This document shows positions 1,731-48,413 of a stretch of DNA of 64,000 nt, in pieces. The position numbers and the translations under genes were made by a program. Each line of letters starts with the position of its first letter. Position 1 is the first letter of the stretch. This DNA is from Dictyostelium discoideum. Its lineage: Eukaryota. The stretch is taken from the NCBI GenBank assembly GCA_000004695.1, contig CM000151.3, positions 384,001 through 448,000 on the forward strand, in the 5' to 3' direction. The notes beneath the pieces were generated by a model that was given only the letters and a program-made list of their open reading frames with translations, had not been told where the DNA came from and did not search any database.

Positions 1731-1753
1731 TTTGCTTCTATCTCTAATGATAT

Positions 1754-3379: not shown

Positions 3380-3410
<31 letters not shown>

Positions 3411-5154: not shown

Positions 5155-5412
5155 CCGTAATAATTATTAAAAATAGTTTAAAAGAATCATCCAAGTTGGC
5201 ACTTTTTTGTAATTACAAAAATTATATATGGGGACTCATATAAAATAATATGAACAATTTTGAAAAGTGCACTTAGATAGTTTTTATAATAACTAAATTT
5301 TTTTTTTTTTTTTTTGAGATATTTCATTATTTCCGAAATAATTTTTAAAATAAATTTTTTTTTTTTTTTTTCTTTTTTAAAAAAAAAACAATGGATAGAG
5401 ATAAAAATTATA

Positions 5413-8448
<3,036 letters not shown>

Positions 8449-9192: not shown

Positions 9193-12354
<3,162 letters not shown>

Positions 12355-12913: not shown

Positions 12914-15967
<3,054 letters not shown>

Positions 15968-19903: not shown

Positions 19904-19934
19904 ATGAGTAACAACAGTAATAGTAATAATAGTA

Positions 19935-19991
<57 letters not shown>

Positions 19992-24254: not shown

Positions 24255-24520
24255 ATGTATTATAAAATTTTACTTATATTTGCATTATTAATTTTTGTTA
24301 ATATTAATTTTGCTTCTTCTGAATTTAAAAAAAATGGTAATAATTATTTGAAACAATTAAAATATTAAATATATAAACGATTTGCTTTACTGATATTATT
24401 TTTATTTTAAATTTTTTTTTTTTTTTTTTCTTAAAATTAGAAACTGAATCTGCGACTTTAAAATCATTATATGCTAGTTATTTAATGCAAAATAACAATA
24501 ATACTAATTATAATAATACC

Positions 24521-24578
<58 letters not shown>

Positions 24579-24738
24579 GTAATAATACTAATATTTATAA
24601 TGATTCAGTAACAAAGAATAAATGTAAAAATAAGAATGAATTGACAGTTGGTATAATTGGTGGTGGTATTGCAGGTCTTTATGCTGGTATGTAATTTATT
24701 AATGATTATTATAAAATAATTTTTTGAAGGTATTAACC

Positions 24739-24770
<32 letters not shown>

Positions 24771-26625
24771 GTATGATTTTCGATGATTTAGGTATTGATT
24801 ATACAATCTTAGAAGCCAATAAGGAAAGAGTTGGTGGAAGAGTTTATACTCATAAATTTGATGATCATAAATATTCATATACTGATCTCGGTGCTATGCG
24901 TATTCCATTAACGCCATTAATGGATAGAATTGTATCAAACCAAAATTATTCATTATTTAGTAAATTGGCAAAAGGTGGATATCAAATTCCAACTGTACCA
25001 TTTTTAATGAGTGTTAATAATGAAATTAGTTATTATAATGGTATTAGAGTTTTAAAAGGTTCCCCAGTTTTAAATCCATCCGATCCATTTAATTATAGTG
25101 ATTCAAATAATGGTGGTCCAGGAAAAGGTATTCCAGACGAGTATGCAAATCGTACAGTTGACTCTTTAATTCTCCCAGTATTTTATCAATTCATTTACAA
25201 TTTAACAGTTGATTTTGATAATGGTTTTAAACAAATGTTAAAATATGATAGCTATTCTGCAAGAGATTATTTAAAAACATTCCATAATTATCCAAATTCA
25301 GTTGTGAGTATTTAAAAAAAAAAATTAAATTTATTAAAATATATAAATATTAAATTATATTATTTTTTTTATTTATTATTAGATTGATTATATTGAAAAT
25401 TTATCAACAAATACTGGAAGATTAGATCAATCATCTATTACTGAATTATTAATGAGTGTTTTTGATTTTAGTGGAGAAAAATTCGTTTGTGTTGAAGGTG
25501 GTACAGGTCTTATTGTTAAATCAATGAGTCAAATTATAAAGAAAAAAGTTGAAATGGGTAGTTTTGTTACTAAAATTTCAAAATCATATGATAAAAAGAA
25601 TAATGAAATCGATGGATTAAATGTTGAAGTAGTAAGAGATTCAAACTTTGGTGGTAGTGATACTGAAATATTGAAATTTAAACATGTAATTAGTACTACA
25701 ACTTTACCAGCATTACAAAGAATTGATACAAGTGATTTGAAATTACCATTGAAATTAAAGGTTGCAATTCGTTCACTTAAATACACTGGTGCTATTAAAC
25801 TTGCAATTAACTTTAAATATCGTTGGTGGGAAGATAGTGAATTTATGAGTGGTAAACCAATTAGAGGTGGTTCTTCAAATACCGATCTTTTACTTCGTCA
25901 AGTTGTTTATCCATCATATGGTATCAATAATGGTACAAAAGGTGTTAGCGGAGTTTTATTAGCAAGTTATAGTGGTGGTTTGGAATCAATCAGAGTAAGT
26001 TGTGAATAACATTATTATGTTTAAAATAATTAATATTAATTTTTCTTAAATTTTATAGATTAGTAGTATGATTGGTAAAAAAGATAAAGAAAGAAAACTT
26101 TTAAATATAGTTTTAAGAGATCTTGCTGAAATCCATAATGTTGATTTAAAGAAATTAAAAAATTTATATAAAGATCATTTCTTCCAAAGTTGGGATAATG
26201 ATGAATTTGTAAGTATTAAATTTTAATAAATATTTATTTTATTTTTGAAAATATTAATAAATTTTAATTTTATTTTAAAAAAAAAAAACAAATATTAGTC
26301 ATCAGGTGCTTTTGCATTATTTTCAATATCTCAATATACTGAACTTTTCCCAAGTACTGGACAATCACATGTTGATGGTAGATTCCATTTATCAGGTGAA
26401 TTAACCTCGGTTCATCATGCATGGATGATTGGTGGACTTAATAGTGCATATAGATCAGTTGATTTAATTTTAAAGAATGAAGGATTTGAAGATTTACGTA
26501 TCAAATTAAGAAATAATTGGGGCACTATTGAGCAAGCTGAATATCCATCATTAGATTGGTATAAATACGACTCTGATATTAATCATTATAATATTCAAGG
26601 AAAATCAATTGAAAAATTATATTAA
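24255..26625 (+). CDS. Secreted flavin-containing amine oxidase / L-amino-acid-oxidase-like protein, copy 1; 6 exons
   Basis: Exons are 24255-24336, 24441-24686, 24771-25303, 25383-25994, 26059-26208 and 26299-26625. Donors are GTAATA, GTATGT, GTGAGT, GTAAGT, GTAAGT and every acceptor is AG, with consistent phases. The signal peptide is MYYKILLIFALLIFVNINFASS. Exon 2 carries a poly-Asn run. The FAD fingerprint TVGIIGGGIAGLYAG spliced onto MIFDDLGIDYTILEANKERVGGRVYT matches the LAAO/MAO GxGxxG...E..x..GGR dinucleotide-binding motif. The C-terminal GRFHLSGELTSVHHAWMIGGLNSAYRSV matches the amine-oxidase C-terminal FAD contact. Confidence 0.7.
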
Positions 26626-29394: not shown

Positions 29395-31679
29395 ATGTAT
29401 AAAAAAATTTTACTTATATTTGCATTATTTATTTTAGTTAATATTAATTTTGCTTCTTCTGAATTTAAAAAAAATGGTATTAAATATTTGAAACAATAAA
29501 AATATTATATATAAAACGATTCAATTTACTGATATTATTTTTATTTTAAATTTTTTTTTTTTTAAAAATTAGAAACTGAATCTGCAAATTTAAAATCGTT
29601 ATATGCTAGTTATTTAATGAAAAATAACAATAATACTAAATATAATAATAATGATAATAGTAATAATACTAATATTTATAATGATTCAGTAACAAAGAAT
29701 AAAAGTAAAAATAAGAATGAATTGACAGTTGGTATCATTGGTGGTGGTATTGCAGGTCTATATGCTGGTATGTTATTTATTAAAAGTATGATTATTATAA
29801 AATTATTTTTTGAAGGTGTTGACTTTTTTTTTTTTTTTTTTTTTTAAATCAAGGTATGATTTTCGATGATTTAGGTATTGATTATACAATCTTAGAAGCC
29901 AATAAGGAAAGAGTTGGTGGAAGAGTTTATACTCATAAATTTGATGATCATAAATATTCATATACTGATCTCGGTGCTATGCGTATTCCATTAACGCCAT
30001 TAATGGATAGAATTGTATCAAACCAAAATTATTCATTATTTAGTAAATTGGCAAAAGGTGGATATCAAATTCCAACTGTACCATTTTTAATTAGTGTTAA
30101 TAATGAAATTAGTTATTATAATGGTATTAGAGTTTTAAAAGGTTCCCCAGTTTTAAATCCATCCGATCCATTTAATTATAGTGATTCAAATAATGGTGGT
30201 CCAGGAAAAGGTATTCCAGACGAGTATGCAAATCGTACAGTTGATTCTTTAATTCTCCCAGTATTTTATCAATTCATTAACAATTTAACAGTTGATTTTT
30301 ATAATGGTTTTAAACAAATGTTAAAATATGATAGCTATTCTGCAAGAGATTATTTAAAAACATTCCATAATTATCCAAATTCAGTTGTGAGTATTTAAAA
30401 AAAATTTAATTTAAAAAAATATATTTATATTAATATTTTTTATTATTAGATTGAATATATTGAAAATTTATCAACAATTAGTGGAAGATTAGATCAAACA
30501 TCTATCACTGAATTATTAATGAGTGTTTTTGATTTTAGTGGAGAAAAATTCGTTTGTGTTGAAGGTGGTACAGGTCTTATTGTTAAATCAATGAGTCAAA
30601 TTATAAAGAAAAAAGTTGAAATGGGTAGTTTTGTTACTAAAATTTCAAAATCATTTGATAAAAAGAATAATGAAATCGATGGATTAAATGTTGAAGTAGT
30701 AAGAGATTCAAACTTTGGTGGTAGTGATACTGAAATATTGAAATTTAAACATGTAATTAGTACTACAACTTTACCAGCATTACAAAGAATTGATACAAGT
30801 GATTTGAAATTACCATTGAAATTAAAGGTTGCAATTCGTTCACTCAAATACACTGGTGCTATTAAACTTGCAATTAACTTTAAATATCGTTGGTGGGAAG
30901 ATAGTGAATTTATGAGTGGTAAACCAATTAGAGGTGGTTCTTCAAATACCGATCTTTTACTTCGTCAAGTTGTTTATCCATCATATGGTATCAATAATGG
31001 TACAAAAGGTGTCAGCGGAGTTTTATTAGCAAGTTATAGTGGTGGTTTGGAATCAATCAGAGTAAGTTGTAAATAACATTGATTAAGTTTAAAATAATTT
31101 AATATTAATCAAATTAATTTTTCTTAAATTTTATAGATTAGTAGTATGATTGGTAAAAAAGATAAAGAAAGAAAACTTTTAAATATAGTTTTAAGAGATC
31201 TTGCTGAAATCCATAATGTTGATTTAAAGAAATTAAAAAATTTATATAAAGATCATTTCTTCCAAAGTTGGGATAATGATGAATTTGTAAGTATTAAATT
31301 TTAATAAATATTTATTTTATTTTTGAAAATATTAATAAATTTTATTTTTATTTTAAAAAAAAAAAACAAATATTAGTCATCAGGTGCTTTTGCATTATTT
31401 TCAACATCTCAATATACTGAACTTTTCCCAAGTACTGGACAATCACATGTTGATGGTAGATTCCATTTATCAGGTGAATTAACCTCGGTTCATCATGCAT
31501 GGATGATTGGTGGACTTAATAGTGCATATAGATCAGTTGATTTAATTTTAAAGAATGAAGGATTTGAAGATTTACGTATCAAATTAAGAAATAATTGGGG
31601 TACTATTGAACAAGCTGAATATCCATCATTAGATTGGTATAAATACGACTCTGATATTAATCATTATAAATTATATTAA
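29395..31679 (+). CDS. Secreted flavin amine oxidase / LAAO-like protein, copy 2 (tandem duplicate); 6 exons
   Basis: Exons are 29395-29476, 29573-29767, 29854-30386, 30450-31061, 31137-31286 and 31377-31679. Intron positions are identical to copy 1 and coding identity is near-complete. Differences: a shorter poly-Asn tract in exon 2, a 24-nt in-frame deletion at the C-terminus (...INHYKLY* versus ...INHYNIQGKSIEKLY*), and a few substitutions such as M>I and Y>F. Confidence 0.7.
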
Positions 31680-31977: not shown

Positions 31978-33927
31978 TTAATTGGTGAGTATGTATTTTT
32001 TAAAATTTTTTTGAAATCCCAAATTAACTTTGATTTCTTTCAAATTTATGTTGATATTTGTTGGTTTTTGTTGTTGCGTTTGAATTATAATATTATTTAT
32101 TAAATTATCATATTCATTTTTAAAATCATTAATTGGTATTTTAGTATTTTTGATATATAATACTATTGAATATAATTGTAAATTAAAAATATTATTTAAA
32201 ATTAATTTAAATATTGATTTTAATTCATCTAATTCTTTAATTTTACTTTTATAATGTCTAATTGATGTTAATGGTGAAGAAAATATATTTTCAAATAAAT
32301 ATTGATTAATTGAAATTCGTTCGTAATGAAATTCATCATTATTTAAATAAGTATTAAACGTATTTTTTTTCGTTGGTATTGGTGGCGGTGGTTGATATTG
32401 TTTATTATAAGAATAAAAAATAAAATCACTATCAGTTAAAATTAAATATTTAAGTGATTTATTTTTTAATAAATTCGAAAATGTATTGATATTAAATAAA
32501 CCATGACAGTCTAATTTTATTCTTTCAATTGATGTATTTAATTCTGAAAATAGTGGTTTAAAATAATTTGAAAACATTTCTTTACTTTGATTTATGGTTT
32601 TAATTAAATTTTTATTTTTTTCATCATTATAGTAATCATATGAACCACTATCACCATGCTGTCTATAATAATGGAATTTAATTATATCTTCAATATTTTC
32701 ATTACATAATGTTATATTTAAAAATTTTAAAGATTTACTTGAAATTAATGAATTAACCATTTCTTTTAAATTGGAGTTTACATTTTCTGAATGATATTCA
32801 AAATTAAATGAATTAGTTCCAATTTCATTAAATATATCTGATAATATTGAAACTGGTTTAATTGGTATTTTGATTGTATGTAAATTTTGAAATTCACCCA
32901 CTTTTATTAAATTACGAGGTTCAACGAAATCAATATCACCACTATATACTTTAATTGATTCAACTTGTTGGCCTGAATAAACTGGATTGAATAATGTTGA
33001 ATAATTGACATGTGTTTCTAAACTACAATTAATAAAATTTATATTTTTAAATTTGAAATAATTTAATACCTCGAATGAATCCTCATCATAATCATTTTCA
33101 CTTCTAGGTCCATTAATAACTATATTATTAAAACTTAATTCTGTTTGATGATTATTATAGCTTTTATTTATAATATTTTTAATACCATTAATGGTATCTT
33201 CAAGAAGCTCATTTCTAATTTCCATCTCTCTAATATTTAATTCTAAAATTTCAAATAACTTGTATAGTTTATCTTTTTGTTCTTTCGTCATTGTTGATAC
33301 ATATTTAAATATTTCAAATAAAATATCTTGTTTTTTGTCCCCATTTTCATCATAATCTAATACTTCGAAATTAACTAAAATTCTATTATAAATTAATTGA
33401 CCATTTTCAAACTGATTATGAATCGCCTTAAAATCATCAATTGTAATATTATGAAAAAATAAATTCAAACTAAAATAATCATTAATTATCGATTCTTTAA
33501 TTTTAATTATTGAAAATTCATTATTATAATTAATTTTATATAATTTCCTTCTACCATCTTCAAATGTTGAATTAAATATATTATTTTTATTATACTGATT
33601 TTCTTCTTTATTATATATAATATCATTTTTATTAAGGAATGATTCTTTAAAATAATTAATTTTTAACCAATGTTTAAATGATTTATTATTAATAATATTA
33701 TTTGAAATTATTAATGATATAAAATTAAACCATTTTTTTGAAACTAATATATAATTTAATAATTCGTTTCTATTTTTAAAAAATTTAATAAATTTAAATT
33801 GGTTATTATTTTTATTTTTATTACTTTTTAATAAATAATCAATAATTAATTTTAAAATTTCAAAATCAATTATATCTTGAAATATTTTAAAATTATTATC
33901 AACTTTAATTTTTTCAATTGATGACAT
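31978..33927 (-). CDS. Hypothetical 649-aa protein with an F-box-like N-terminus (IFQDIIDFEILKLIIDYLL) and a long Asn/Ile/Lys-rich body; source of the duplicated fragments
   Basis: Single long minus-strand ORF with ATG at 33927. Fragments of it recur at 26790-27010 and 27930-28390. Confidence 0.55.
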   Translation of the reverse strand: MSSIEKIKVDNNFKIFQDIIDFEILKLIIDYLLKSNKNKNNNQFKFIKFFKNRNELLNYILVSKKWFNFISLIISNNIINNKSFKHWLKINYFKESFLNKNDIIYNKEENQYNKNNIFNSTFEDGRRKLYKINYNNEFSIIKIKESIINDYFSLNLFFHNITIDDFKAIHNQFENGQLIYNRILVNFEVLDYDENGDKKQDILFEIFKYVSTMTKEQKDKLYKLFEILELNIREMEIRNELLEDTINGIKNIINKSYNNHQTELSFNNIVINGPRSENDYDEDSFEVLNYFKFKNINFINCSLETHVNYSTLFNPVYSGQQVESIKVYSGDIDFVEPRNLIKVGEFQNLHTIKIPIKPVSILSDIFNEIGTNSFNFEYHSENVNSNLKEMVNSLISSKSLKFLNITLCNENIEDIIKFHYYRQHGDSGSYDYYNDEKNKNLIKTINQSKEMFSNYFKPLFSELNTSIERIKLDCHGLFNINTFSNLLKNKSLKYLILTDSDFIFYSYNKQYQPPPPIPTKKNTFNTYLNNDEFHYERISINQYLFENIFSSPLTSIRHYKSKIKELDELKSIFKLILNNIFNLQLYSIVLYIKNTKIPINDFKNEYDNLINNIIIQTQQQKPTNININLKEIKVNLGFQKNFKKYILTN

Positions 33928-34579: not shown

Positions 34580-37500
34580 ATGAAAGTAATAAATATAATT
34601 TTATTAATAATTTTATTTATTATTAATTGTGAAAATGTAAAATCGATTGATTGTTCATACAAACCAGAAATGATTAAAATTAATTCTTGTAGTCTTCAAG
34701 CAAGTTTGGAAGTACAAGATCAATATTATTCATTTGAAAATGTATATATTGAACCATTTTTACTACCAATTAATAGTGAAAATTCTTTTTATTATAATTT
34801 AAATAATGGTATTGAATATACTTTAAATATTCAAAACAAGGGTTGTAATAATAATGTAACAGAAAAATTTAAACCAACTGGAATGTACTATGAATTAATT
34901 ACTCAACCAAAATGTATGAATACTTTATTTAAATTTAATCTTTTTTATTATTACCTCAATGGAAGTTCAATTACAATCTCGACAAAACAAGGTAATTTAG
35001 AATATTATAATTATGATAAATCATGTAAGGCTAATTTTGTAATTGTTCCTCAAAGTGTAACAAATGGTGTTGTTCAAAATGGTGCTGTGAAAATAGTTAA
35101 TCCAACATGTGGTTTCAACAATGGTAGTATAACTGTTGACTTGACAAAAGGCTATTCAAATGTCCGTTTATTCCGTTTCAATGAAGGTGAATTAGATGAT
35201 GAAGTTCAACCAAGTAATATACCAGGTTCATTTTTGAATTTACCTTATAATAGTTATGTGATTTCTGTAGAATCTGAAGAATGTGGTAATGAAATTGTAA
35301 ATATTGAACTTATTAATACTTTACCTACATTAAATGTTGAAATTAAAGAAGTTCCAAACTTTTTTGAAGATTCAACTTTTTCATTTTCATTATCATCTGG
35401 AGAACAAGGAATTTTAAATAGTACAAATGCTTTTGTTTTCGTTAATGAAAATGACGATGAGCCTATAAGTAATTGGACAGATTATACTGCCCGTTTCACA
35501 AGTGGAACTTTAGAATATGGTTATTATTATAATGTTGATTTTTTACCAGGCAATGAAAAATCATGTGAAACATTCGAATATGTAAATGGAGTGATTCCAG
35601 CATCCGTATTAAAGTATACAATTACAAAACATGGTGATAGTTGTTTAAATGACCTCCTATTGACAGTTTATCAATTTTCCAATAACCCAATTTCTTTGTA
35701 TGATTTCAATGCTGATAGTATGATGACATTTGGGGATGGTGGTAATACAACAGTTATACCATATAATAGAGATTTTTCATTACAAGAGAAATATGCAGGC
35801 CCAACCCAATACTTTTCAACCGTATATAAAGTTCCAACTTATTCACTTGTTGAAACGACAAAAGGAGGTTTAACTGGATGTTGGAGAACTTTTAATATTA
35901 CAATTAATGACTATGAAAGTTTAGGTGATCTAGAATTAGAATTTAATTACAAAACTGATTCTATTTACTATCCAGTAGATGGTGTTTTTATTGATATTCC
36001 AAGTGGTCCTTATAGAATCTCCTATTTTGTTGGAGATTGTGATACTAAATCATATTTCACTATTTTAAATTCTAAAGAAGATGAATGTAATCAAGATGTT
36101 ATATCCACTTCATATAGAATTCTTCAAAATGCTACATGTTCGGAACCTTATGAAGTTGAATTTACAGCATCAACTCCACTTGGTTTGGTTAGTTATAACT
36201 TGAGTGTTTATTCTCTTTCCCATGTTGATGATAGATATGAATTTCCAAATAGTTTAGCTTATGTTGATGTATTATATTATAATCCAAATACTTTAATTTG
36301 GGATGATAAAGAATTTAATATATCTATTGGACATGATGCAAAATGTTCATTCACATATGGTACAATAGAATTAGAAATACCAAATGATCCATATAATCCA
36401 AATATACAATATAATGTAAAAAACGTTTTTGGTAATGATGGTAAACCACTAAGAAGTGCTGGTCCAGGTTTAAATTATTTAATACCACCTGGTGAGAATA
36501 ATTTAATCGTTCAATATTTTTATGGTGGTAATTATAATAACATATGTTATAAATCAAAATCAGTTAACATTAATGCTGAAATATCAATTAAACCACAATA
36601 TACTTCAAATGCTAATACCGATTGTCAAACACCAAATGGTAAAATCATTATATCAAATTATCAAGCATTTACTAATATTACAATTGAATTATCAGATCAA
36701 CAATCATTCATAATTGCAGTTAATGGTGAATTAACCAATCTTAAAGGTGGTGATTACAATGTTTTCTTTGAATCAGAATCATGTAGTGGTTTTGTTACTA
36801 TCAATGTCCCAACATCTGAAGATAATGTTGAAATTGAAACATCAATACTTCAAAATCCATCATGCCTTGTATATTTCTCTCCAGGTAATTCCGATGGTAA
36901 AATTAAAGTTAATGTTAAAAAAGATGGTGTACAATTAGACAATTTAATAGTTTCAGATTTAGCTGATTCACATTCAGATAATAATGTTTTTATTGGTGGA
37001 AAGGTTGGTTTAAATTCATTAATGATTAAATCAGGTAATTGCACTTGGTATAGAGATGTCAATGTTGAAAAAATTGATGGCCCAATGTTTTCACTTGAAA
37101 CTCTACTCAATGAAAGTTGTGGTTGGCCAAATGTTTATAAATTAAATATTGGAAATCCAAATGTCGTCATTAAACAGACTAGTTATTCCGATAGTAATAA
37201 AAACTTTTATCAAGGTTCCTATTATTTTGTATTGTCAAGTAGTACTTCCTATTCCCTTCTACTTCAATGGAGTACAATTTGTTCAGAAAGTTTTAATATA
37301 CCAGCAAAAAATAATATTCAAGATTATCAAGAATATCCAATTCAATATGAAATTGTAAAAGCTGATAATTGTCATTCATTGAAAATTGATATTATTATTA
37401 AAAATATGAATGAATTTTCAACAATGTCAATTTTTAGTAGAGTACCAGAATCAATTAATTCAACACATGCAATTTTCAGAAATTTACCACCAAATAAATA

Positions 37501-38227
37501 TTACAATGTTGAGTATTTAAAAACTAAACCTTATTGTTATTCTTATCAACAAATTGGTGAATATGAAATTTCAAGTGGTTTAACAAAAGAATCTTTAAAA
37601 ATTAAAAAATCAAATGATATGTGTCATAACGGTATTGGTAAAATTGAAATTCAAACTCCATTGGATACTGATAATTATTATTATTCAATGCAAAAGATTA
37701 ATGGTTTAATGTCAGGTGGTTACGAAACAAATACTCATCTCACTAATGATAATGCTGATCAAGTTTTATCAAATTTACCAAATGGTATCTATTATATTAC
37801 TCGTATTTGTAAATCAATTTTAAATTGTTACATTAGAGAAAAGGTTGAAATTATAAGTGAAAATCCATCAATTCAATCAATTACAATTAATCACTCGTAT
37901 AGTAATAAAAACAATGGTACTGTAGAAATTAAATTAAATTATAATACAACTAAATCTGTAACTTTTGAAATCGTAAATACTCAATTATCAAATAATAATG
38001 GTATTTTCTCAAATTTATCTCCAAACAATTATCAAATTAAAATCACTATCACTGATAGAATGTGTCCTGTAACTTTATATGAAAATTTCAGTATCAATTC
38101 AATTCCAACACCAAAACCTGTAGATCCATCTAAAGATCCATCTGATGAACTTTCAACTTCAACTTTAATTCAAATTAATCATTTATTATTATTATTAATT
38201 ATTTTAATTTTAACAATTATTATTTAA
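34580..38227 (+). CDS. Large secreted, N-glycosylated, Cys-patterned surface glycoprotein (1215 aa) with an N-terminal signal peptide and a C-terminal hydrophobic tail (GPI-anchor or TM-like); paralog A
   Basis: MKVINIILLIILFIINCENVKS signal. Many NxS/T sequons. Recurring C...NG.I modules (NPTCGFNNGSITVD, DMCHNGIGKIEIQ, RMCPVTLYENFSI). C-terminal Ser/Pro-rich stalk then LIQINHLLLLLIILILTIII. Intronless. Confidence 0.7.
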   Translation: MKVINIILLIILFIINCENVKSIDCSYKPEMIKINSCSLQASLEVQDQYYSFENVYIEPFLLPINSENSFYYNLNNGIEYTLNIQNKGCNNNVTEKFKPTGMYYELITQPKCMNTLFKFNLFYYYLNGSSITISTKQGNLEYYNYDKSCKANFVIVPQSVTNGVVQNGAVKIVNPTCGFNNGSITVDLTKGYSNVRLFRFNEGELDDEVQPSNIPGSFLNLPYNSYVISVESEECGNEIVNIELINTLPTLNVEIKEVPNFFEDSTFSFSLSSGEQGILNSTNAFVFVNENDDEPISNWTDYTARFTSGTLEYGYYYNVDFLPGNEKSCETFEYVNGVIPASVLKYTITKHGDSCLNDLLLTVYQFSNNPISLYDFNADSMMTFGDGGNTTVIPYNRDFSLQEKYAGPTQYFSTVYKVPTYSLVETTKGGLTGCWRTFNITINDYESLGDLELEFNYKTDSIYYPVDGVFIDIPSGPYRISYFVGDCDTKSYFTILNSKEDECNQDVISTSYRILQNATCSEPYEVEFTASTPLGLVSYNLSVYSLSHVDDRYEFPNSLAYVDVLYYNPNTLIWDDKEFNISIGHDAKCSFTYGTIELEIPNDPYNPNIQYNVKNVFGNDGKPLRSAGPGLNYLIPPGENNLIVQYFYGGNYNNICYKSKSVNINAEISIKPQYTSNANTDCQTPNGKIIISNYQAFTNITIELSDQQSFIIAVNGELTNLKGGDYNVFFESESCSGFVTINVPTSEDNVEIETSILQNPSCLVYFSPGNSDGKIKVNVKKDGVQLDNLIVSDLADSHSDNNVFIGGKVGLNSLMIKSGNCTWYRDVNVEKIDGPMFSLETLLNESCGWPNVYKLNIGNPNVVIKQTSYSDSNKNFYQGSYYFVLSSSTSYSLLLQWSTICSESFNIPAKNNIQDYQEYPIQYEIVKADNCHSLKIDIIIKNMNEFSTMSIFSRVPESINSTHAIFRNLPPNKYYNVEYLKTKPYCYSYQQIGEYEISSGLTKESLKIKKSNDMCHNGIGKIEIQTPLDTDNYYYSMQKINGLMSGGYETNTHLTNDNADQVLSNLPNGIYYITRICKSILNCYIREKVEIISENPSIQSITINHSYSNKNNGTVEIKLNYNTTKSVTFEIVNTQLSNNNGIFSNLSPNNYQIKITITDRMCPVTLYENFSINSIPTPKPVDPSKDPSDELSTSTLIQINHLLLLLIILILTIII

Positions 38228-38621
38228 AAAATAAATAATTAAATAAATTTTTCAATTTTCTATTGAAAAAAAAAAATGTTTATATCTTTTTGTTGAAAAT
38301 CAAAATTAAATAAAAAATTAAAAAATTAAAAAAATCTGAGGTGGGTGATACAACCACTCTTGTCACATCACACCAACACCCTTTAAAAAAAAAAAATAAA
38401 ATAAAAAAAAAAAATAAAAAAAAAAAAAAAAAAAACAAATTAAATTTTTATTAAAATTTAAACCACTAACACAATAACAATAACAACAACAAAAATAAAC
38501 CACTACCACAACAACAAAAAACAAAAAAACTTAAAAAACTAAAAAAATAAAAATTAAATTTTAATTACATGTAATTTAACTTTTTTAATTCAAAAAGATA
38601 TATATAAAAAAAAAAGATATA

Positions 38622-41600
38622 ATGAAATTGTACAAATATATTTTATTTTACATATTTTATATAATTATAAATAGAGAAATAAATGTTGTAAAATCAGTAA
38701 ATCAATGTACATCACCAATACTAGATCTAATAATAAAAGATTCATGTGGTTTAGATAGTTCAAAATTAATTATAAATCAAGATGATTTTTCATTACTTGA
38801 TATTATAAATTTATCACAATTATCACCACCACAACAAAAGCCACTACTACAACCAACTTATAATATAAATAATAAAGCATTTGAATGGAATTTAATTGAT
38901 GGTATAGATTATTTAATTGAATATAGATATAAGGGATGTAATGGTAATGGTTATACTAATAAACAAATTGTGAAATCAAATGGAATGTATTATAAACTTA
39001 AAACTCAACCATTATGTTTATACACTCAATTTAATTTTACAATTTATAATTTTAATTCATATGGTGATTCAAAAGAATTTCAAGCAACACCTTCAAATAT
39101 AAAAATTTCAAATCAAGATAATACATGTACACTCAATTTCTTCATTACTCCAATTAGTATAACAAAAGGTGCACTTCAAAATAACATTATATCATACACC
39201 CATCCAACATGTGGTTTTAAAAATGGTACAATTTCAATCACAATTCCCAAATCATCATCATTTTCAAATTATCATTTATTTTTTAAAAATGATTTAAATT
39301 TACAAAATGAAATTAAATCTATATCACCTTCAACCACAGATACAGAAACAGAAACAGAAACAGAAATGGAAACAACTATAAAATATATAAATTTAGATTC
39401 AGATGAATATTTAGTTTTTATAGATTCAGATGAATGTGGAAGAGAGAAAATTAAAATTAAACTTGATAATGTTTATCCACAAATTAATTTAGAATTAAAT
39501 CATTTTTCAAATAGTTTTTATAATAATTCAATAATGTCATTCAATGATAATCAATCATCAATTAATTTTAATAAATCAAATTTAGTATTATTTTATGGTT
39601 CACAAAATTCAAAATTTATAAAAAAAGTACAACAACAACAATTGAAAAATGATAATTTTCAAGATGTTTTTTATAAGGATTTAACTTTTGGTTATTATTA
39701 TAATAAAGATTTATCAATTAATCCAACTAACCAATTATTACCATCAATTTGTATATTTCAACAATATAGTAGTAATACAAGATCATTACCACAAATTAAT
39801 TATACAATAATAAATGGAGGTGATGAAAATAATAGTTGTTTAAATATGATTAAAATTGAAATTAACTCATTATATGGAGAAAATGATGAAATTATATTAA
39901 CGTCAATTACTGATAATTTAATTTACAAAATTGAAAAATTAAATATTAGTAATAATAATAATAATTATTATTATTATTATCAATCATATATTCCATACAA
40001 TAATGAATTTAAAATTACTTCTTTAATTGGTAAAGGTGATATTTATTTTTCAACAATTTATAAAAAACTAACTTATAAAATAATTGAAACTTCATCAATT
40101 GAACAAATTGGGTGTTGGAAAACATTTAATATTACAATTTATGATTTTCAAGATTATAAAGATTTAAAATTAATTGGTTCAAATGAAGTACTAATTTATC
40201 CATCAGTTGAAGGTGTATTTATAAATGTACCTTCAAATCAATTAACATTATCCTATTATTACGGTGACTGTATTACAGAGTCAAGAATTAATATTGCTAT
40301 AAATGATAATGATCATTCAAATTTTGGTTTACATTCAGATTATAATCCATTAGATAATGTTAAAATTGATTATTCAATAATTAAAAACTCAACTTGTTTT
40401 ACACCAGCCATTATCCAATATTCAGTAAATTCACCACTTGGCATTTTAAATGGTACTTTTGAAACTGACGATGAATATGAAAATTTTATAAAATTTCCAA
40501 ATTCACTTTGTTTTATACCATTATCATATTCAACACCAAATACAACACCAACTACATCACCAACTACAACAACATCAATACCTATTGATTTTAGTTATAA
40601 AGTAATTAAAACCCCATCTTGTTCAATTGATCAGTCAGGTTTAATTTCAATAAGATTAAATGATAGAAACTTTGTTAATTCAAATTTAATTTATAAAATT
40701 GAAAGTAATGGTGAAATTTTAATTCAACATCCATCAAACCATAATAATTATTTCATTAAATCTGGTGAAAATAAAATTAAAATTACTTTAAAAATTGGTA
40801 ATAAATTTTGTGTATCATCAATACAAAAATCAATTAATATTCCAAAGATAAATTCAATTAATCCAAAAGTTTTAATTACACCAATTACAAATTGTGAAAA
40901 TTCAAATGGTAAAATTGAAATTTTAAATTATCAAGAATTTACAACAATTGAATTATATTCAATAATTAATAATAAACTTTTAAATTCAATCAATAATGGT
41001 AGTACATTTTATAATCTTGAATCTTCAAACTATATATTAAATTTTAAATCACTAATTTGTTCAGGTTCAATAATAGTTAATGTACCATCATCATCTTCAT
41101 CAAATGATAAAAATAGTAAATATAAAATTACACCAACTATAATTCGTAATCCAACTTGTAGTAATGGTAATAGTTATTCAGATGGTAGAATTGGTATATC
41201 ATTGATTAAAGATGGTAATAAAATTAATAATTTTACAATTTCAAATATTAATGATAATCATAATTATTATTTTACAAATGGTATTTATGAAATTGCAACA
41301 GTTGGTTTAAATCAGTTAATAATTAAATATGGTTCATGTAAGTGGTATGAAAATATTACATTAGAATTTGATGATCCTAAATTCAAAATTCAAAATTTAT
41401 TTAATCAAACATGTGGTTTCAATTATAATTTATATAAAATCATTTCAAATAATTCAAATGTTCAAATTAATAAAATTACCTATGTCACTGCTACTGATTA
41501 TACAAATTATCAAAATGAACATTTTATTTCAAATCCTTTTAGATTCCCATTAATTTATACAATTCGTTGGAATGATTTATGTGAAAATACATTCACACAA

Positions 41601-42584
41601 TATTATGATATTAATAATAATAATGATATAAATAATCAACAAATTAATGTAAAATATGAAATTGTTTATCCAAATGATTGTTTATCAAGTTCATCATCAT
41701 CACCATCATTCAAATTTGATATTATTATTAAAAATATGAATTCATTTAAATCATTACTTTTATATGGTAGAGTTCCAACAATATCAATAAATTCAACTCA
41801 TTCAATTTTTAAAAATGTTGTACCTTCAGAAACATATGAATTCACTTATACTTCATTGTATGGTTGTGATGGTATTTTTTATATTTATAAAGACGATTTA
41901 CCAAAAACAAATGTTAATCAAAAATTAGATATTAAAATTACAAATGATATTTGTCATTCTGGTCTTGGTTCAATTCAATTTTCAAATTTTGATAATGATA
42001 ATTATTATTATTATTTAAGATCATTGAAATTAAACTATAAAGAAAATGATAATGATGTCGATCATTCATATAGTATACCAATTTATAATGCCAATAATAA
42101 TAATAATTATAATAATAATATTAGTAATAATAATAATAATTACACATTCAATTTAAAAGTTGGAACTTATAATATTTATCGTGGTTGTAAATCAATGATT
42201 AATTGTATAATTGATGAAAAAATAACAATTGGTAATGATGATCCAGTAATTGAATCAATCAATCTTTTAGATTCTTTTAATAGTTCAAAAAATGGTTCTG
42301 TCGAGGTTAAATTAAATTTCAATTCATCATTTCCAATTGTTTATGAAATCGTTGGAACAAAATTTTCAAATTTAAATGATGGTAAATTTTTAAATTTACC
42401 ACCAAATTCATATGAATTAAAAATAATTATCACTGATAAAATGTGTCCAATCGTCTTGACAAAGAACTTCACCATTAATTTAATTCCAACCGAGAAAACA
42501 AATAGACAACCTTCAAATTCAACTATTCTAAAATTTAATTACTTATTATTTTTAATTGGATTTTTAATTATAATTATTTTTTAA
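38622..42584 (+). CDS. Paralog B of the surface glycoprotein (1320 aa), tandem and same orientation
   Basis: Signal MKLYKYILFYIFYIIINREINVVKS. Shared blocks include THPTCGFKNGTISI, FKFDIIIKNMNSFKSLLLYGRVPTISINSTHSIFKNV (against IDIIIKNMNEFSTMSIFSRVPESINSTHAIFRNL in A), NDICHSGLGSIQF and KMCPIVLTKNFTINLIPT. Thr/Pro-rich stalk (PNTTPTTSPTTTTS) and a C-terminal hydrophobic tail FNYLLFLIGFLIIIIF. Confidence 0.7.
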   Translation: MKLYKYILFYIFYIIINREINVVKSVNQCTSPILDLIIKDSCGLDSSKLIINQDDFSLLDIINLSQLSPPQQKPLLQPTYNINNKAFEWNLIDGIDYLIEYRYKGCNGNGYTNKQIVKSNGMYYKLKTQPLCLYTQFNFTIYNFNSYGDSKEFQATPSNIKISNQDNTCTLNFFITPISITKGALQNNIISYTHPTCGFKNGTISITIPKSSSFSNYHLFFKNDLNLQNEIKSISPSTTDTETETETEMETTIKYINLDSDEYLVFIDSDECGREKIKIKLDNVYPQINLELNHFSNSFYNNSIMSFNDNQSSINFNKSNLVLFYGSQNSKFIKKVQQQQLKNDNFQDVFYKDLTFGYYYNKDLSINPTNQLLPSICIFQQYSSNTRSLPQINYTIINGGDENNSCLNMIKIEINSLYGENDEIILTSITDNLIYKIEKLNISNNNNNYYYYYQSYIPYNNEFKITSLIGKGDIYFSTIYKKLTYKIIETSSIEQIGCWKTFNITIYDFQDYKDLKLIGSNEVLIYPSVEGVFINVPSNQLTLSYYYGDCITESRINIAINDNDHSNFGLHSDYNPLDNVKIDYSIIKNSTCFTPAIIQYSVNSPLGILNGTFETDDEYENFIKFPNSLCFIPLSYSTPNTTPTTSPTTTTSIPIDFSYKVIKTPSCSIDQSGLISIRLNDRNFVNSNLIYKIESNGEILIQHPSNHNNYFIKSGENKIKITLKIGNKFCVSSIQKSINIPKINSINPKVLITPITNCENSNGKIEILNYQEFTTIELYSIINNKLLNSINNGSTFYNLESSNYILNFKSLICSGSIIVNVPSSSSSNDKNSKYKITPTIIRNPTCSNGNSYSDGRIGISLIKDGNKINNFTISNINDNHNYYFTNGIYEIATVGLNQLIIKYGSCKWYENITLEFDDPKFKIQNLFNQTCGFNYNLYKIISNNSNVQINKITYVTATDYTNYQNEHFISNPFRFPLIYTIRWNDLCENTFTQYYDINNNNDINNQQINVKYEIVYPNDCLSSSSSSPSFKFDIIIKNMNSFKSLLLYGRVPTISINSTHSIFKNVVPSETYEFTYTSLYGCDGIFYIYKDDLPKTNVNQKLDIKITNDICHSGLGSIQFSNFDNDNYYYYLRSLKLNYKENDNDVDHSYSIPIYNANNNNNYNNNISNNNNNYTFNLKVGTYNIYRGCKSMINCIIDEKITIGNDDPVIESINLLDSFNSSKNGSVEVKLNFNSSFPIVYEIVGTKFSNLNDGKFLNLPPNSYELKIIITDKMCPIVLTKNFTINLIPTEKTNRQPSNSTILKFNYLLFLIGFLIIIIF

Positions 42585-43689: not shown

Positions 43690-43692
<3 letters not shown>

Positions 43693-43831
43693 AAAAAAGA
43701 AAATGGAAACTGTGATACTGAACCTATTCCCTTATCAATAATATTATCTAATGATAATGAAAATACAAACGAAACCATCATAGAAACCAATAATAAAAGT
43801 GATACCAGCGGTAATGATAATAATAATAATG

Positions 43832-43866
<35 letters not shown>

Positions 43867-45366
43867 GAGAATAAAGAAAAAGAGCATCACCATCATAAAG
43901 TACCTATTTTTGCCTATGTAATATTAGGATTTGCATTATTAGCAATGTCAAGTAGTGGTGTTGCATTAAAATCAATTGAAGCACCGCCACTTCTTAAAGC
44001 AAGTTGGAGACTTCAATCAACATCAATATTATTATTTTTTGGATTAATCTATGAAGTTACAATGATTTATAACTTTCATAAAAAGATTATACAAAAGTTA
44101 CCAAAATCTTTAATTTTATTATTACCAAATAAAATTTCAATTATTTATAATAATTTTGATAAATTAAAAGAAGAAGAAGAACAAGAACAAGAACAAAATG
44201 AAGATGAACAAAATGAAACAAATTACAATAATCAAAAAAAAGAAATTGAAAAAGAAAAAAATAAAGAAGAAATTAAAATTAAATTATTTCAAAGGAAAAC
44301 TATTTTAATTTTACTTGGTACAGGGATAATCCTTGGATTTCATTTTTCATTTTGGATTGTAAGTGCGATTTTTTAATTTTTCATTTTAGGTCGTAGATGC
44401 GATTTTTTAATTTTTTAATTTAATTAATTTATTATAATATAAAGATATCTTTAGATAAAACCACTTTAGCTCACAGTTTATTATTTGTAACTTCATCACC
44501 AATTATGATAGTTTTGGTAATGATAATAAGAAGAGCACCAATTTCAAAAGGTGAAATTATAGGTTGCATTTTAGGTTTTATTGGATTAATAATTACATTA
44601 TTCGATTCTTTATTTTTTAATAATAATAATAATAATAACAATAATGATGATAGTATTGGTAGTGGTAGTGGTAGTAGTAGTATTGGTAGTGGTAAATCTA
44701 ATCAAAATCCAACAGTATATGGTGACTTTTTAGCATTAATGGGTGCAGTATGTATTGTTTTTTATTTATTTGCAGGTTCATTACTTAGAAAATGGATGCC
44801 ATTATTTTGTTATGCATTTCCTGTAACTTTTATAGCTTCAATATTCTGTTCAATTGCATCATTAATTTTTGAAGAAACAGATTTATTCATATTTGGTTGG
44901 GTTTCAAAATCTTTTATATTATTAACTTGTTATTTAGCTGGTAAGTTTTGATTTTTTATTTTATTTTCTTATCATTTTAAAATTAATTTAATTAACTTTT
45001 TTTTTTTTAAAAAAAATACAAATAAATTTAAAATAGTTTTCCCTGGATTTATTGGGCATACGGGAATGAACGCGATTATTAAATATATTGAACCTGTTGT
45101 TGTAAGAATTTTATTTTATTTTTAATTTTAGTTTTCTTTTTTTTTTCTTTTTTTTTATTTTTTTTTTTTTATTAATAATAAAACAATTTTTAAAAATTTA
45201 TAAATCTATAGATTAGTGTTACATTATTATTAGAACCTCCAATTGGATCATTAATGGGATACGTAGTTGGTGTTGAAGGTTTACCAACATTTTTTACATT
45301 CATTGGTGGTCCTTTCATTATTGGTGGTTGTTTATTAGTAACAATTTCATCACATCTCAGAAATAA

Positions 45367-45452
<86 letters not shown>

Positions 45453-45466
45453 CACAACAAAACTAA
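43690..45466 (+). CDS. EamA/DMT-superfamily (drug/metabolite transporter-like) multi-pass membrane protein; 4 exons; N-terminal poly-Asn and C-terminal poly-Gln
   Basis: Exons are 43690-44358, 44445-44940, 45037-45101 and 45212-45466. Donors are GTAAGT, GTAAGT, GTAAGA and every acceptor is AG, with phases consistent. TM-rich blocks (VPIFAYVILGFALLAMSSSGVALKSIEAPPLLKASWR; IIGCILGFIGLIITL; YGDFLALMGAVCIVFYLFAGSLLRKW; FPGFIGHTGMNAIIKYIEPVV; GYVVGVEGLPTFFTFIGGPFIIGGCLLV) fit two EamA repeats. (CAA)29 at 45371-45460 encodes Q-run. Confidence 0.6.
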
Positions 45467-45592
45467 ATATTAATAATAATAATAGTATAATGAATATTAA
45501 TAATAGAATAAAGAACAACACTAATTAATTTTACGATGTTGTCAAATTTCAATCTATTCATATGAAATTTTCTTCCAAAAAAGGTTTTATTC

Positions 45593-45642
<50 letters not shown>

Positions 45643-45751
45643 GAATTTTAAATAATTGATAAAAAAAAAAAAAAAAAAAAAACCAAATAAAAGTAGTATA
45701 AACCATTTCTTTTCTCAAACCTTTTAAAATCCTAAAAGCCTATCTTAATTA

Positions 45752-45773
45752 GGAAATAGCTATTTCCATATGG
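45752..45773. promoter_or_regulatory. Perfect 16-bp palindrome GGAAATAGCTATTTCC abutting the palindromic CCATATGG, in the intergenic region between the DMT transporter and the small Pro/Gln-rich ORF
   Basis: Seen directly. It is a GC-richer motif in an A/T desert, about 280 bp upstream of ORF 46036. Confidence 0.25.
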
Positions 45774-46035
45774 AAAGAAAAAAAAAAAATTAAAAAAATT
45801 AAAAAAAAAAATTAAAAAAATTAAAAAAAAAAAAATTTCGAAAAAGTTTCTAAAAATGGTAAAAAGAAAAAAAAAAAAAAATTTAGAAATTAATAATAAA
45901 ATGTATTTTTTTTTTTTTTCCTCTGTAATTATTTTCAAAAACAATAAATAATAAATAATAGATAAAAAAAATATCTAAACAAATTAAAATTTTTCAAATT
46001 TCAAATAAAGAAATAAAAATAAACCTAAAGAAAAA

Positions 46036-46353
46036 ATGAGAAGAAGAGGACCAATGAGAAGAGGACCAGTTATAGTTGCACCAAGAAGGGGTGTAGGTTT
46101 AGGTACATTAGCAGCTGGTGTTGGTGTTGGTATGTTAGCATCAAGTGCTTCACGTCCCCATTATGCACCTCCACCACCACCACCACCACAACAAGTAATT
46201 CATACATATCAACAACTACCTCCACAAGTAATTGTTCAACAACCAGGAGTTCAACCTCAAATGATATTCGATCCAGCAACAGGACAATACTATCAAGTTG
46301 CTCAACCACCTATTGTTCAAACTACAACTGTCCAAAATCCTTATGGATATTAA
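46036..46353 (+). CDS. Small (105 aa) Arg/Gly N-terminal, Pro/Gln-rich protein, hypothetical
   Basis: GC-richer, codon-biased ORF: MRRRGPMRRGPVIVAPRRGVGLGTLAAGVGVGMLASSA...PPPPPPPQQVIHTYQQLPPQVIVQQPGVQPQ... Confidence 0.4.
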   Translation: MRRRGPMRRGPVIVAPRRGVGLGTLAAGVGVGMLASSASRPHYAPPPPPPPQQVIHTYQQLPPQVIVQQPGVQPQMIFDPATGQYYQVAQPPIVQTTTVQNPYGY

Positions 46354-46598
46354 ACAAATTTGAACAAAACTAAATAATAATAATAATAATAATAGTAATA
46401 AAAAAAAAAAATTAAAAAAATTAAAAATTAAAAATTAAATCAAAATCTGCAAATTAATAAATAAATAAATAATAAATATTTTTAAAAAATTAAAATTTAT
46501 ATATATTTATATTTTTTTTTTTGTTTTAATACTTAAAAAATAAAAGAAAAAAATATATAATTTATTATTATTATCTAAGTTTTTTTTTTTTTTTTTTT

Positions 46599-48413
46599 TT
46601 ATGAATCTTCGCCAGTTAAATATTTGAGAGAAAGTTTTGCATTTTTAACAGCAGAAGGAACATCATCGAATTGAAGTGAACTGATTACCCATTTAGAATA
46701 TTTCTCAGCACTTGCTTTATCGGTATCAGATGGTGTATGATTTAAGTTCATTGACATATTGCCACCTCCACCGCCACCGCTCATTAATTGTTTTTGTTGT
46801 TGTTGAATTTGTTTTTGAAGTAGTTGGATTTGTTGTTGTTGTTGTTGAAGTTGTTGTTGTTGAAGTTGAATTTGTTGTTGTTTTTGTTCCACCTCATCTT
46901 GTAACATTTGATTTTGATGTTTTTGTTTTTGAATAGTTAAATTTTGTTGAGCAACTTGTTGTTGATATTTAATTAAAGCTTCATTATCATGACTATTGTG
47001 ATGTTGTTGTGGTGGTGACTGTTTATGTTGTTGTGGTGGTGATTGTTTAAATTCGTATGCTGGTGGTGGTGGTTGATTATATTCATTATTGTGACTATTT
47101 GAAGGGAATTTTGGGAATGAAGATGAAGTTGATTTTTGTTGTTGTTTTTCACTATAATCTTCCACTTCTTCTTGCTCTTCTTCTTCATCACTTTCAAATA
47201 CTTGTCTCTTTTGATTTGTAGAATTTGGAAATGTTGGGAATGATGGTTGTTGACTATTATTATTATTATTATTACTATTGGTTGGTGATGTGAAAGATGG
47301 GAAAGAAGGGAATGATGGTTGTTGACTATTATTACTACTACTATTGGTTGGTGAAGGTGTTGATGGAAATTTAGGGAAAGAAGGTGCGCTATCAGAATTG
47401 GTTGTTGTTGGTGGTGATGGGAATGATGGAAATGATGGAAATGCTGGTTTATTATTATTACTATTATTATCTGAATTAGTTGGTGATGGGAATGATGGGA
47501 ATGAAGGGAATGATGGTGTAGTATTATTATTATTATTATTATTATTTGGAATTGAAGGGAAAGATGGGAAAGAAAGTGATGATGACATACCTTCACTAAC
47601 ACTATTAGTTGTAATTATGGTTGATGATGACATATTATTATTATTATTATTATCTTGTTGTAAAGTTGCTTTTGCTAAATTTAATTCCATTTCTAATTGT
47701 TTCAATTGTGCATCCTCTTCAGTTTCTCCACTTGCTCCACCTTCTTCATTTTGGTCAATTGATGGTGGTGGTGATGGTGCAACACCGTTTTTAATTGCTG
47801 TATTGATATCAACAGATCTCCAACTTGCATACTTTTTCTTTAATTTAACTTCTTCACTAACTTCACCCATATGTTCTAAAACATTAAAAAATAAAAATGC
47901 TGAATAAAATGTTGTTGATGTTGCTCTAATAATTTAAATTTAAAAAAAAATATTAATAAATTTACTATTCATTTACTTTTTTTTACTTTTTTTACTTTTT
48001 TTTTTCTACATACTTATTTGCTTTACCGGCACGATCTTGAGTATCAGCAAATGAAAATGCTTTCATAGCAAATGCTTCTACATATTTTGCTTCATCTTCT
48101 TCATCTAATCTTGATCCTAATTTTGCTTTATCCTATATAAATTTTTTTTTATTAAAATTTATTTAAATTATTTTTTAAAAAAAAAATAAATAAATAAAAA
48201 ACTTACAGCATCACCTTGATCTAAAATTTTAACAATTGGTATACTAAGGAATGAACCTGATGCACCCATTTTTTGTTTTATATCCATTGCCATTTGTATT
48301 GCATGAACTCTACAATAATATGCCATAAGTAAATCATGTTTTTCTAATTGTTGTGATTGTTTTAAGTATGGTATAATTGGTTTTAATGCTGGTGGTAAAC
48401 TTGCTAAATCCAT
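46599..48413 (-). CDS. vta1: Vta1 ortholog (ESCRT/Vps4 cofactor, LIP5/Vta1 family); 3 exons, with a greatly expanded low-complexity linker
   Basis: Minus-strand exons are 48413-48207 (MDLASLPPALKPIIPYLKQSQQLEKHDLLMAYYCRVHAIQMAMDIK...ILDQGDA), 48132-48014 (DKAKLGSRLDEEDEAKYVEAFAMKAFSFADTQDRAGKANK) and 47925-46599 (ATSTTFYSAFLFFNVLEHMGEV...). Donors are GTAAGT and GTATGT; acceptors are AG. This aligns with human VTA1 at LPPALKPIQPFL...RDPVVAYYCRLYAMQ, ALKMFLYADNEDRAGRF and SFYTASLL. The C-terminal VSL-like end is KASAEKYSKWVISSLQFDDVPSAVKNAKLSLKYL. The linker holds PSFPSFPSFPSP repeats and a poly-Q coiled region. Confidence 0.75.

Follow-up and report, generated by a model that had tools for sequence, protein, structure and literature searches.

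In a 64,000-nucleotide stretch of Dictyostelium discoideum DNA (contig CM000151.3, positions 384,001 to 448,000, the whole of which we call the window), two adjacent genes, A and B, encode large proteins that we propose, with moderate confidence, to be surface rods of about 14 immunoglobulin (Ig)-like domains, probably held by a glycosylphosphatidylinositol (GPI) anchor and devoted to adhesion or recognition. The proposal combines two main observations: the apparent kinship of the repeated modules of A and B with the SprB repeats of Bacteroidota adhesins exported by the type IX secretion system (T9SS), and the conservation, throughout a family of dictyostelid proteins, of the cysteines and of the two hydrophobic termini. 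An earlier note on the same DNA had assigned the pair to no named family; we can now group the genes with dduB and the modules with repeats of the SprB type.

The pair, correctly described in that note as two intronless paralogs of 1215 and 1320 amino acids (aa), is laid out as follows.

34580..38227, + strand: gene A, DDB_G0271480 (Q55B15), a single exon of 1215 aa whose open reading frame (ORF) equals the AX4 protein
38228..38621: spacer between genes A and B, 394 bp, A/T-rich
38622..42584, + strand: gene B, DDB_G0271482 (Q55B14), a single exon of 1320 aa, a 100% match to the AX4 protein

DDB_G0271482 sits on the 8.48-Mb record of D. discoideum AX4 chromosome 2, and DDB_G0271480 on the same chromosome. 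The AX4 annotation describes both as hypothetical and without intron and, since the annotated proteins are the translations of the ORFs, the genes are intronless as annotated. The GC content is about 20-25% across most 2-kb pieces of the window and stops are expected, by simple arithmetic at about 22% GC, at about 9% of random codons, so ORFs of 1215 and 1320 aa are not the product of chance. The two proteins align collinearly from end to end with 32% identity (E=1e-157) and are, on this alignment, collinear tandem paralogs. Logan contigs of about 3.86 kb that hold gene A were considered as possible mRNAs and dropped because their ends are genomic A/T runs; they bring no expression evidence.

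Both proteins are built of about 14 modules of about 85 aa each. The Cys-patterned modular repeats seen in the earlier note are borne out by the count of cysteines (28 in A and 27 in B, of which about 25 are invariant across 14 close family members and 11 are still invariant across 36 dictyostelid homologs of 17-75% identity) and by hidden Markov models (HMMs) of the modules: an HMM trained on six modules of A finds six modules of B at equivalent positions, and profile-profile comparison links 8-9 of the 14 modules to one another. These modules, with the membrane-distal head of A, are found at the following places.

34646..35083, + strand: A residues 23-168, membrane-distal head of two small Ig-like sandwiches with 5 conserved Cys
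35090..35326, + strand: A residues 171-249, SprB-like module by the module HMM, with the only direct Pfam SprB match, which is sub-threshold
36329..37108, + strand: A residues 584-670, 677-758 and 757-843, three consecutive SprB-like modules by the module HMM
37604..38107, + strand: A residues 1009-1099 and 1102-1176, two membrane-proximal SprB-like modules by the module HMM, with Saprospiraceae T9SS repeat matches and the lowest nonsynonymous divergence (dN)
39198..39449, + strand: B residues 193-276, SprB-like module by the HMM made from gene A modules only
40611..41384, + strand: B residues 664-747, 756-827 and 840-921, three SprB-like modules by the HMM from gene A modules
41934..42479, + strand: B residues 1105-1202 and 1221-1286, two membrane-proximal SprB-like modules by the HMM from gene A modules

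A family profile of 12 members, searched against 1.84 billion representative proteins, returned 222 matches, and those that we looked up fall into two classes, full-length dictyostelid relatives and Bacteroidota T9SS proteins (sorting the matches into dictyostelid and bacterial by composition was uninformative). The Bacteroidota class is matched repeatedly by profile positions of about 640-770 and about 1040-1180, with 4-43 matching repeats per protein and whole-library E values down to 3e-67, and the bacterial matches identified are a Saprospiraceae T9SS protein, a Salegentibacter HYR-domain protein and metagenomic proteins. Pfam assigns SprB repeats at the gathering score to 8 of the 11 non-dictyostelid matches that were scanned, and several carry Por_Secre_tail or CHU_C, type IX C-terminal sorting domains that Pfam did not find in A or B. 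Residue-level alignments reveal a repeat grammar common to the amoebal and the bacterial modules, with a P-x-I linker, then C-x2-N/D-G-x-I-x-I and F-x-N-L-x-P-G-x-Y-x-V…C; in A and B the SprB-type repeats start with the motif C-x2-N/D-G-x-I-x-I and end with G-x-Y-x-V/I-x5-C. By profile and alignment, at least six modules in each protein belong to the SprB type known from adhesins that Bacteroidota export by type IX secretion.

Residues 22-1190 of A were modelled with AlphaFold2 from a 36-sequence alignment; the model has a mean predicted local distance difference test score (pLDDT) of 81.9 and comprises about 90 strands and one helix of 4 residues. The predicted structure is an all-beta string of sandwiches of the Ig and fibronectin type III (FN3) kind, which belongs to the general class of beta-sandwich adhesion molecules, and a Foldseek search of the PDB with this model returns fragments of GhpA at the top (E=6e-15), then generic Ig/FN3/MG arrays. 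Scanned directly with Pfam, A, B and 36 relatives yielded nothing beyond sub-threshold SprB matches, and a PDB sequence search was negative. IPT/TIG or E-set domains had no match at E<=1 in the Pfam scans of A and B, so the Ig/IPT/TIG modules suggested earlier are borne out, in the model, as Ig/FN3-like sandwiches and not as IPT/TIG domains. Neither Pfam, PDB-sequence nor Foldseek searches recognised an enzyme family or a catalytic domain in A or B, and a reading of the pair as a housekeeping extracellular enzyme, which the earlier note had raised, was discarded since no catalytic fold was found.

The features of the two ends, and the largest Ser/Thr/Pro-rich stretch, are these.

34580..34645, + strand: A residues 1-22, signal-peptide-like N-terminus MKVINIILLIILFIINCENVKS, Kyte-Doolittle >1.8 at residues 1-3, called by rule
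38135..38227, + strand: A GPI-signal-like C-terminus, …DPSDELSTSTLIQINH followed by LLLLLIILILTIII and then the stop, hydrophobic to the last residue, with S-T-S about 8-10 aa upstream
40494..40625, + strand: B internal Ser/Thr/Pro-rich stretch, about residues 625-668, including STPNTTPTTSPTTTTS; the top 30-aa windows are 63-67% Ser/Thr/Pro and start at 625-639
42507..42584, + strand: B GPI-signal-like C-terminus, …QPSNSTILKFNY followed by LLFLIGFLIIIIF and then the stop, with a hydrophobic end and the conserved motif upstream

The N-termini of A and B are hydrophobic and end in ...VKS ahead of the first conserved Cys, in agreement with the -3/-1 cleavage rule, and the hydrophobic h-region with its V-K-S site is kept, by the same rule, in most of the 14 close family members compared. 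Besides the N-terminus, the sole strongly hydrophobic segment of A and B is formed by their last 13-15 residues, after which nothing follows. It is preceded by the motif …(P)SDELSTS-x-F/L-x-Q-x-N, conserved in the family, and the GPI-type pattern of a hydrophobic end, a polar spacer of about 7 aa and a small S-T-S upstream is common to 14 of 14 members. The chromosome 5 relative DDB_G0288437 ends in a transmembrane (TM) helix followed by a charged cytosolic tail of about 35 aa; the tail-less ends of A, B and dduB therefore constitute a distinct conserved state, which supports GPI anchoring, as far as such patterns go, short of proof.

As to the architecture described in the earlier note, the signal-like and GPI-like termini are present and conserved, both called by rule only, and the overall plan of an adhesion molecule, secreted, tethered and made of beta-sandwich modules, is upheld. 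The Ser/Thr/Pro stalk was overstated: the Ser/Thr/Pro-rich residues ahead of the tail form short linkers of about 25 aa in A and about 15 aa in B, and the larger stretch of B lies in mid-protein and not next to the membrane. Heavy glycosylation finds no backing either, as the N-glycosylation sequons number 19 in A and 26 in B against about 22 and 30 expected, by arithmetic, from their Asn-rich composition; glycosylation is possible, and 7 sequons are kept in at least 11 of the 14 members.

In the mechanism that we favour, A and B would enter the secretory pathway through the N-terminal signal peptide and would fold into some 14 successive Ig/FN3-like domains, each about 85 aa long and stabilised by disulfides. 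The C-terminal hydrophobic peptide would be replaced by a GPI anchor, leaving the protein in the outer leaflet of the plasma membrane as a rod extending a few tens of nm from the cell, and the fast-evolving N-terminal domains would be offered to a ligand carried by another amoeba, by the matrix or substratum, or by a bacterium. The lack of any cytosolic part argues for adhesion, spacing or a cis partner rather than for direct signalling. The many conserved Cys and the long repetitive beta structure would also suit a component of the extracellular matrix, shed from the cell, built into the slime sheath, stalk tube, spore coat or macrocyst wall and cross-linked through its Cys, and Dictyostelium matrix and coat proteins are indeed often made of Cys-rich repeats. 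However, the spacing of the Cys would fit one intradomain pair per module of about 85 aa and not free cross-linkers, the conserved membrane-anchoring tail argues for the cell surface, and Pfam revealed no similarity to known coat or sheath families; we regard a matrix role as very improbable.

Several points weigh against the proposal of anchored adhesive rods. The direct match of A to the Pfam SprB repeat (PF13573) reaches 19.3 bits (E=9e-4) over one stretch, 171-191, for a cut-off of 28; B has no match to this entry, and sub-threshold matches occur in only 4 of the 36 family members. The individual bacterial repeats score just 5-36 bits, so the claim of homology rests on the number and the consistency of the matches. 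The signal peptide and the GPI site were called by rule and inspection (hydropathy, -3/-1) and not by a trained predictor, and the hydrophobic end could in principle belong to a type I tail-anchored topology with zero cytosolic residues. Adhesion itself is deduced solely from the architecture, and literature searches by gene ID, UniProt accession and the name dduB returned nothing relevant on either gene or on dduB, nor any published function of A, B, dduB or DDB_G0271238.

In AX4 the family comprises, beside A and B, dduB (DDB_G0271234), DDB_G0271238 and the TM relative DDB_G0288437 on chromosome 5. The name ddu may refer to a dedifferentiation screen. The full-length relatives that were looked up (about 1000-1400 aa) come from Tieghemostelium lacteum, D. 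purpureum, Polysphondylium violaceum, Heterostelium album and Synstelium polycarpum, with DDB_G0288437 in addition, and all are dictyostelid; when the family alignment was used for a third homolog search, word-indexed, no further relative of use came up. The neighbour-joining tree gives three clades, A, B and DDB_G0271238 with dduB, which are restricted to the D. discoideum species complex and have a T. lacteum protein as sister, and A and B are, by this tree, old tandem paralogs within a dictyostelid-wide family. The tandem has the same order and orientation in D. cf. discoideum (L001), in D. citrinum and in two tropical D. discoideum isolates (L003 and L004), the A and B proteins of an AX2-type assembly are identical to those of AX4, the pair is thereby syntenic in five genomes besides AX4, and both genes are single-copy, same-strand and syntenic in every genome examined. 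The sexual-fusion glycoprotein gp138 is, we presume, a possible member; no AX4 match carried that name. Two giant proteins of Synstelium polycarpum (5003 aa and 3222 aa) contain, inside their longer chains, a segment of 850-990 residues collinear with the A/B family; either the module set is used there in far larger proteins, or the gene models are fused.

Divergence within and between species was judged against the flanking genes, the chromosome 5 paralog and a published study of the group (PMC12745789), to whose strains we matched the comparison assemblies by inference from their names; exact-sequence look-ups of other proteins of the window, intended as a genome-wide baseline, yielded nothing. 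In that study, the tropical isolates CR116C and OT3A are diverged from AX4 yet form macrocysts with AX2, whereas M4B and S6B, which possibly represent cryptic species, mate poorly with it (PMC12745789). AX4 and the two tropical isolates have 91-93% identity in A and 93% in B, with a synonymous divergence (dS) of 0.07-0.09 and a dN/dS of 0.31-0.39 for the two genes, and in the same strains the flanking genes have a dS of 0.05-0.12, an unrelated upstream gene having a similar dN/dS. Since dduB (92% identical) and DDB_G0288437 (95%) are similarly diverged between these strains, the strain divergence is genome-wide. A local excess of polymorphism of the allorecognition kind at A and B is not supported, in a test that is weak, with three haplotypes.

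Between species the picture changes. A is 75% identical to its ortholog in D. cf. discoideum, 58% in D. citrinum and 53% in D. dimigraforme, and B is 84% identical in D. cf. discoideum, 67-68% in D. citrinum and 55% in D. firmibasis, with a between-species dN/dS of 0.43-0.70 for the pair. Ratios of 0.3-0.7 indicate purifying selection, hence functional proteins and not decaying ones; a pseudogene or decaying duplicate was ruled out by dN/dS <1 and by ORFs intact in six genomes. The membrane-proximal modules are the slowest-evolving (lowest dN in sliding windows), and against D. cf. discoideum dN is highest over codons 1-75 of both genes, a segment that includes the signal peptide and whose excess is not significant alone. 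A McDonald-Kreitman (MK)-type count of nonsynonymous and synonymous polymorphisms (Pn/Ps) and fixed differences (Dn/Ds), made by a simple script with AX4 and the two isolates as ingroup (three deep-lineage sequences) and D. cf. discoideum as outgroup, gave the following.

Gene A: Pn/Ps 111/71, Dn/Ds 324/103, ratio 2.0, p 0.0003
Gene B: Pn/Ps 81/63, Dn/Ds 143/64, ratio 1.74, p 0.018
Upstream 649-aa gene: Pn/Ps 63/33, Dn/Ds 118/38, ratio 1.63, p 0.11
Pooled acetyltransferase and amine-oxidase exons: Pn/Ps 48/47, Dn/Ds 35/38, ratio 0.90, p 0.76

What the MK excess suggests, as far as such counts can tell, is that changes became fixed adaptively or at an accelerated rate between incipient species, not that polymorphism was balanced. 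Against the cryptic sister L001, A has a dN of 0.146 and B of 0.059, a 2.5-fold gap, with dS of 0.21 and 0.13; unequal coalescence depth or gene conversion within a distance of 4 kb could lie behind this difference between immediate neighbours.

These figures bear on the idea of recognition, which the earlier note had put forward as a self/non-self or mating-type system. A and B would then be recognition molecules whose variable distal domains confer specificity, discriminating cells either by kin or allorecognition in aggregation or by species or gamete recognition in the macrocyst cycle. The divergence of both genes between species is fast, and can be set beside the identities reported for curated TgrB1 (80-90%) and TgrC1 (65-70%) in the same genome set, where dN/dS is <1 for both (PMC12745789). 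Fixed nonsynonymous changes are in excess in A and B and not in the pooled control exons of neighbouring genes, the sister lineage is, if our match of assemblies to strains holds, the one reported to mate poorly with AX2, in contrast to the good mating of the ingroup isolates (PMC12745789), and the peak of dN in the first 75 codons goes in the same direction. On the other hand, the divergence of A and B within the group is the same as that of their flanks, dduB and DDB_G0288437 diverge comparably between the same strains, IPT/TIG domains are lacking, and the stable single-copy, syntenic, same-strand tandem differs from the duplicating tgrBC pairs on a single promoter; the MK counts, for their part, come from three deep-lineage ingroup sequences and a simple script. 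Moreover, A and B, on chromosome 2, do not lie at what we take to be the positions of the mat and tgrBC loci. The self/non-self or mating-type system of the earlier note, for which it would have taken high diversity across isolates as a sign, finds no support in the domain content, in the behaviour of the locus or in the divergence within the group, while fast evolution between species and the MK excess partly rescue a recognition role at the level of the species; dedicated recognition is in our opinion rather unlikely.

A second alternative would see in A and B a receptor or adhesin of the feeding amoeba, whose rods would bind bacteria or soil particles and help phagocytosis or traction, their rapid evolution following changing prey or pathogens. 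The repeat type is common to Bacteroidota adhesins that serve gliding (SprB) and prey capture (GhpA), the lineage-specific growth to four chromosome 2 paralogs with an adaptive-looking divergence is typical of proteins that face the environment, and a GPI-type anchor without signalling tail suits a passive binder. Yet a repeat fold in common with bacterial adhesins says nothing on the ligand, and neither a lectin nor another known carbohydrate-binding fold was found in the distal head; such a role seems to us unlikely. The anchored rod of unspecified adhesive or recognition function keeps our preference.

We may go one step further and imagine that A, B, dduB and DDB_G0271238 form a second, Tgr-independent class of recognition molecules, GPI-anchored rods whose distal domains would diversify adaptively between incipient species and would aid species-specific recognition of cells or gametes, the repeat having been acquired by the ancestor of the Dictyostelia from Bacteroidota prey. 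We offer this as a speculation, and a quite unlikely one. Repeats of the SprB type are otherwise seen in type-IX-secreted adhesins of Bacteroidota, and the link prompts one to ask where the amoebae got the module; one candidate source is their bacterial prey, through an ancient transfer.

The surroundings of the pair hold further tandem families. Just upstream of A, a 649-aa gene without Pfam match (window 31978-33927, - strand) matches A and B in its rate of evolution (72% identity to D. cf. discoideum, dN/dS 0.34-0.48) and is present in two copies in D. citrinum. Tandem amine-oxidase-like genes lie at about 24377-26622 and 29823-31676 (+ strand), with one copy in L003 and two in L004. Four tandem paralogous ORFs of about 910-1050 aa, without Pfam domain, occupy 5314-8448, 9193-12354, 12914-15967 and 19904-22636 (+ strand); compared with the ortholog that one isolate has of the fourth, the first three show 47-49% identity, and the four make up a second uncharacterised tandem family. 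A tRNA-Val(AAC) (2412-2486, - strand) adjoins an ORF (2778-4706, - strand) with retroviral-type aspartyl protease and Tf2 SH3 domains, which is a tRNA-adjacent retroelement; such elements are typical in Dictyostelium. The first part of the window (1-2000) is unusually GC-rich (40%), with a strong skew. On the downstream side, positions 18403-22393 of the L003 sequence, compared with 43690-47870 of the window, carry a Vta1-type gene directly after B and an EamA-type gene next, a local rearrangement relative to AX4 and to the other isolate.

Dictyostelium is the main model for multicellularity built from free-living cells and for kin discrimination, and to our knowledge the catalogued adhesion and recognition molecules of this organism are few: csA, DdCAD-1, Sib and Tgr. 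Databases already list both genes, as hypothetical, and tandem-Ig surface adhesion molecules are a familiar kind. What appears to be new is the assignment of a dictyostelid family to the SprB-type class, with a GPI-type anchor in the place of the T9SS signal and a rapid, partly adaptive divergence; a literature search for SprB repeat and Dictyostelium found no paper drawing this link. For a family so far unannotated, this provides an architecture, a topology that is probable and a signature of how it evolves, and the module can help to annotate many dictyostelid surface proteins now called hypothetical. Should the genes encode ordinary adhesins, the gain would be limited to annotation.

Among known systems, TgrB1 and TgrC1 invite comparison first, being, like A and B, large Ig-like-domain surface proteins of a social amoeba encoded by adjacent genes, and the identity of A and B between species is similar to theirs or lower. 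The Tgr proteins, however, span the membrane, carry TIG/IPT and E-set domains and have a cytoplasmic part that signals, and the tgrB1/C1 loci are pairs on a single promoter, prone to duplication and rearrangement (PMC12745789). In contrast, A and B give no TIG match, have no cytoplasmic part after the hydrophobic tail and form a stable same-strand tandem; without TIG domains, membership of the Tgr family is ruled out.

Within the family itself, dduB and DDB_G0271238 resemble A and B most closely: of about 1190-1320 aa, they are collinear over their full length, 33-37% identical, and have the same invariant Cys, a signal-like N-terminus and the '(P)SDELSTS…hydrophobic' C-terminus, and they too form an adjacent gene pair. 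They differ in that A and B stand in separate, older clades and that B has extra low-complexity insertions. DDB_G0288437 and the distant dictyostelid homologs retain the collinear ectodomain and the conserved Cys at 17-23% identity, and DDB_G0288437 evolves more slowly than A (95% identity to the tropical isolates and 92% to D. cf. discoideum, vs 92-93% and 75%).

Outside the amoebae, the bacterial SprB-repeat proteins (PF13573; the SprB gliding adhesin and the HYR/T9SS giants) have in common with A and B the grammar of modules of about 85-100 aa and the long extracellular Ig-like strings. They are bacterial proteins of 2000-7500 aa, whereas A and B are eukaryotic, of about 1200 aa, with a GPI-like tail in place of the T9SS C-terminal domain and with just about 6-9 of the 14 modules recognisably of the SprB type, and the motor-driven gliding that SprB serves is inapplicable to them. 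Of the solved structures, Foldseek ranks GhpA first (PDB 9flp, 9fly, 9flw…). This 'grappling hook' of Aureispira is a T9SS protein that its authors compare to SprB, and its stem of 52 Ig-like repeats contains intramolecular disulfides (bioRxiv 10.1101/2024.01.29.577165). Unlike A and B, GhpA is 5898 aa long, heptameric, T9SS-secreted and equipped with a hook module; like them it is a string of Ig-like repeats, and its glycosylated, disulfide-bearing stem serves to catch another cell.

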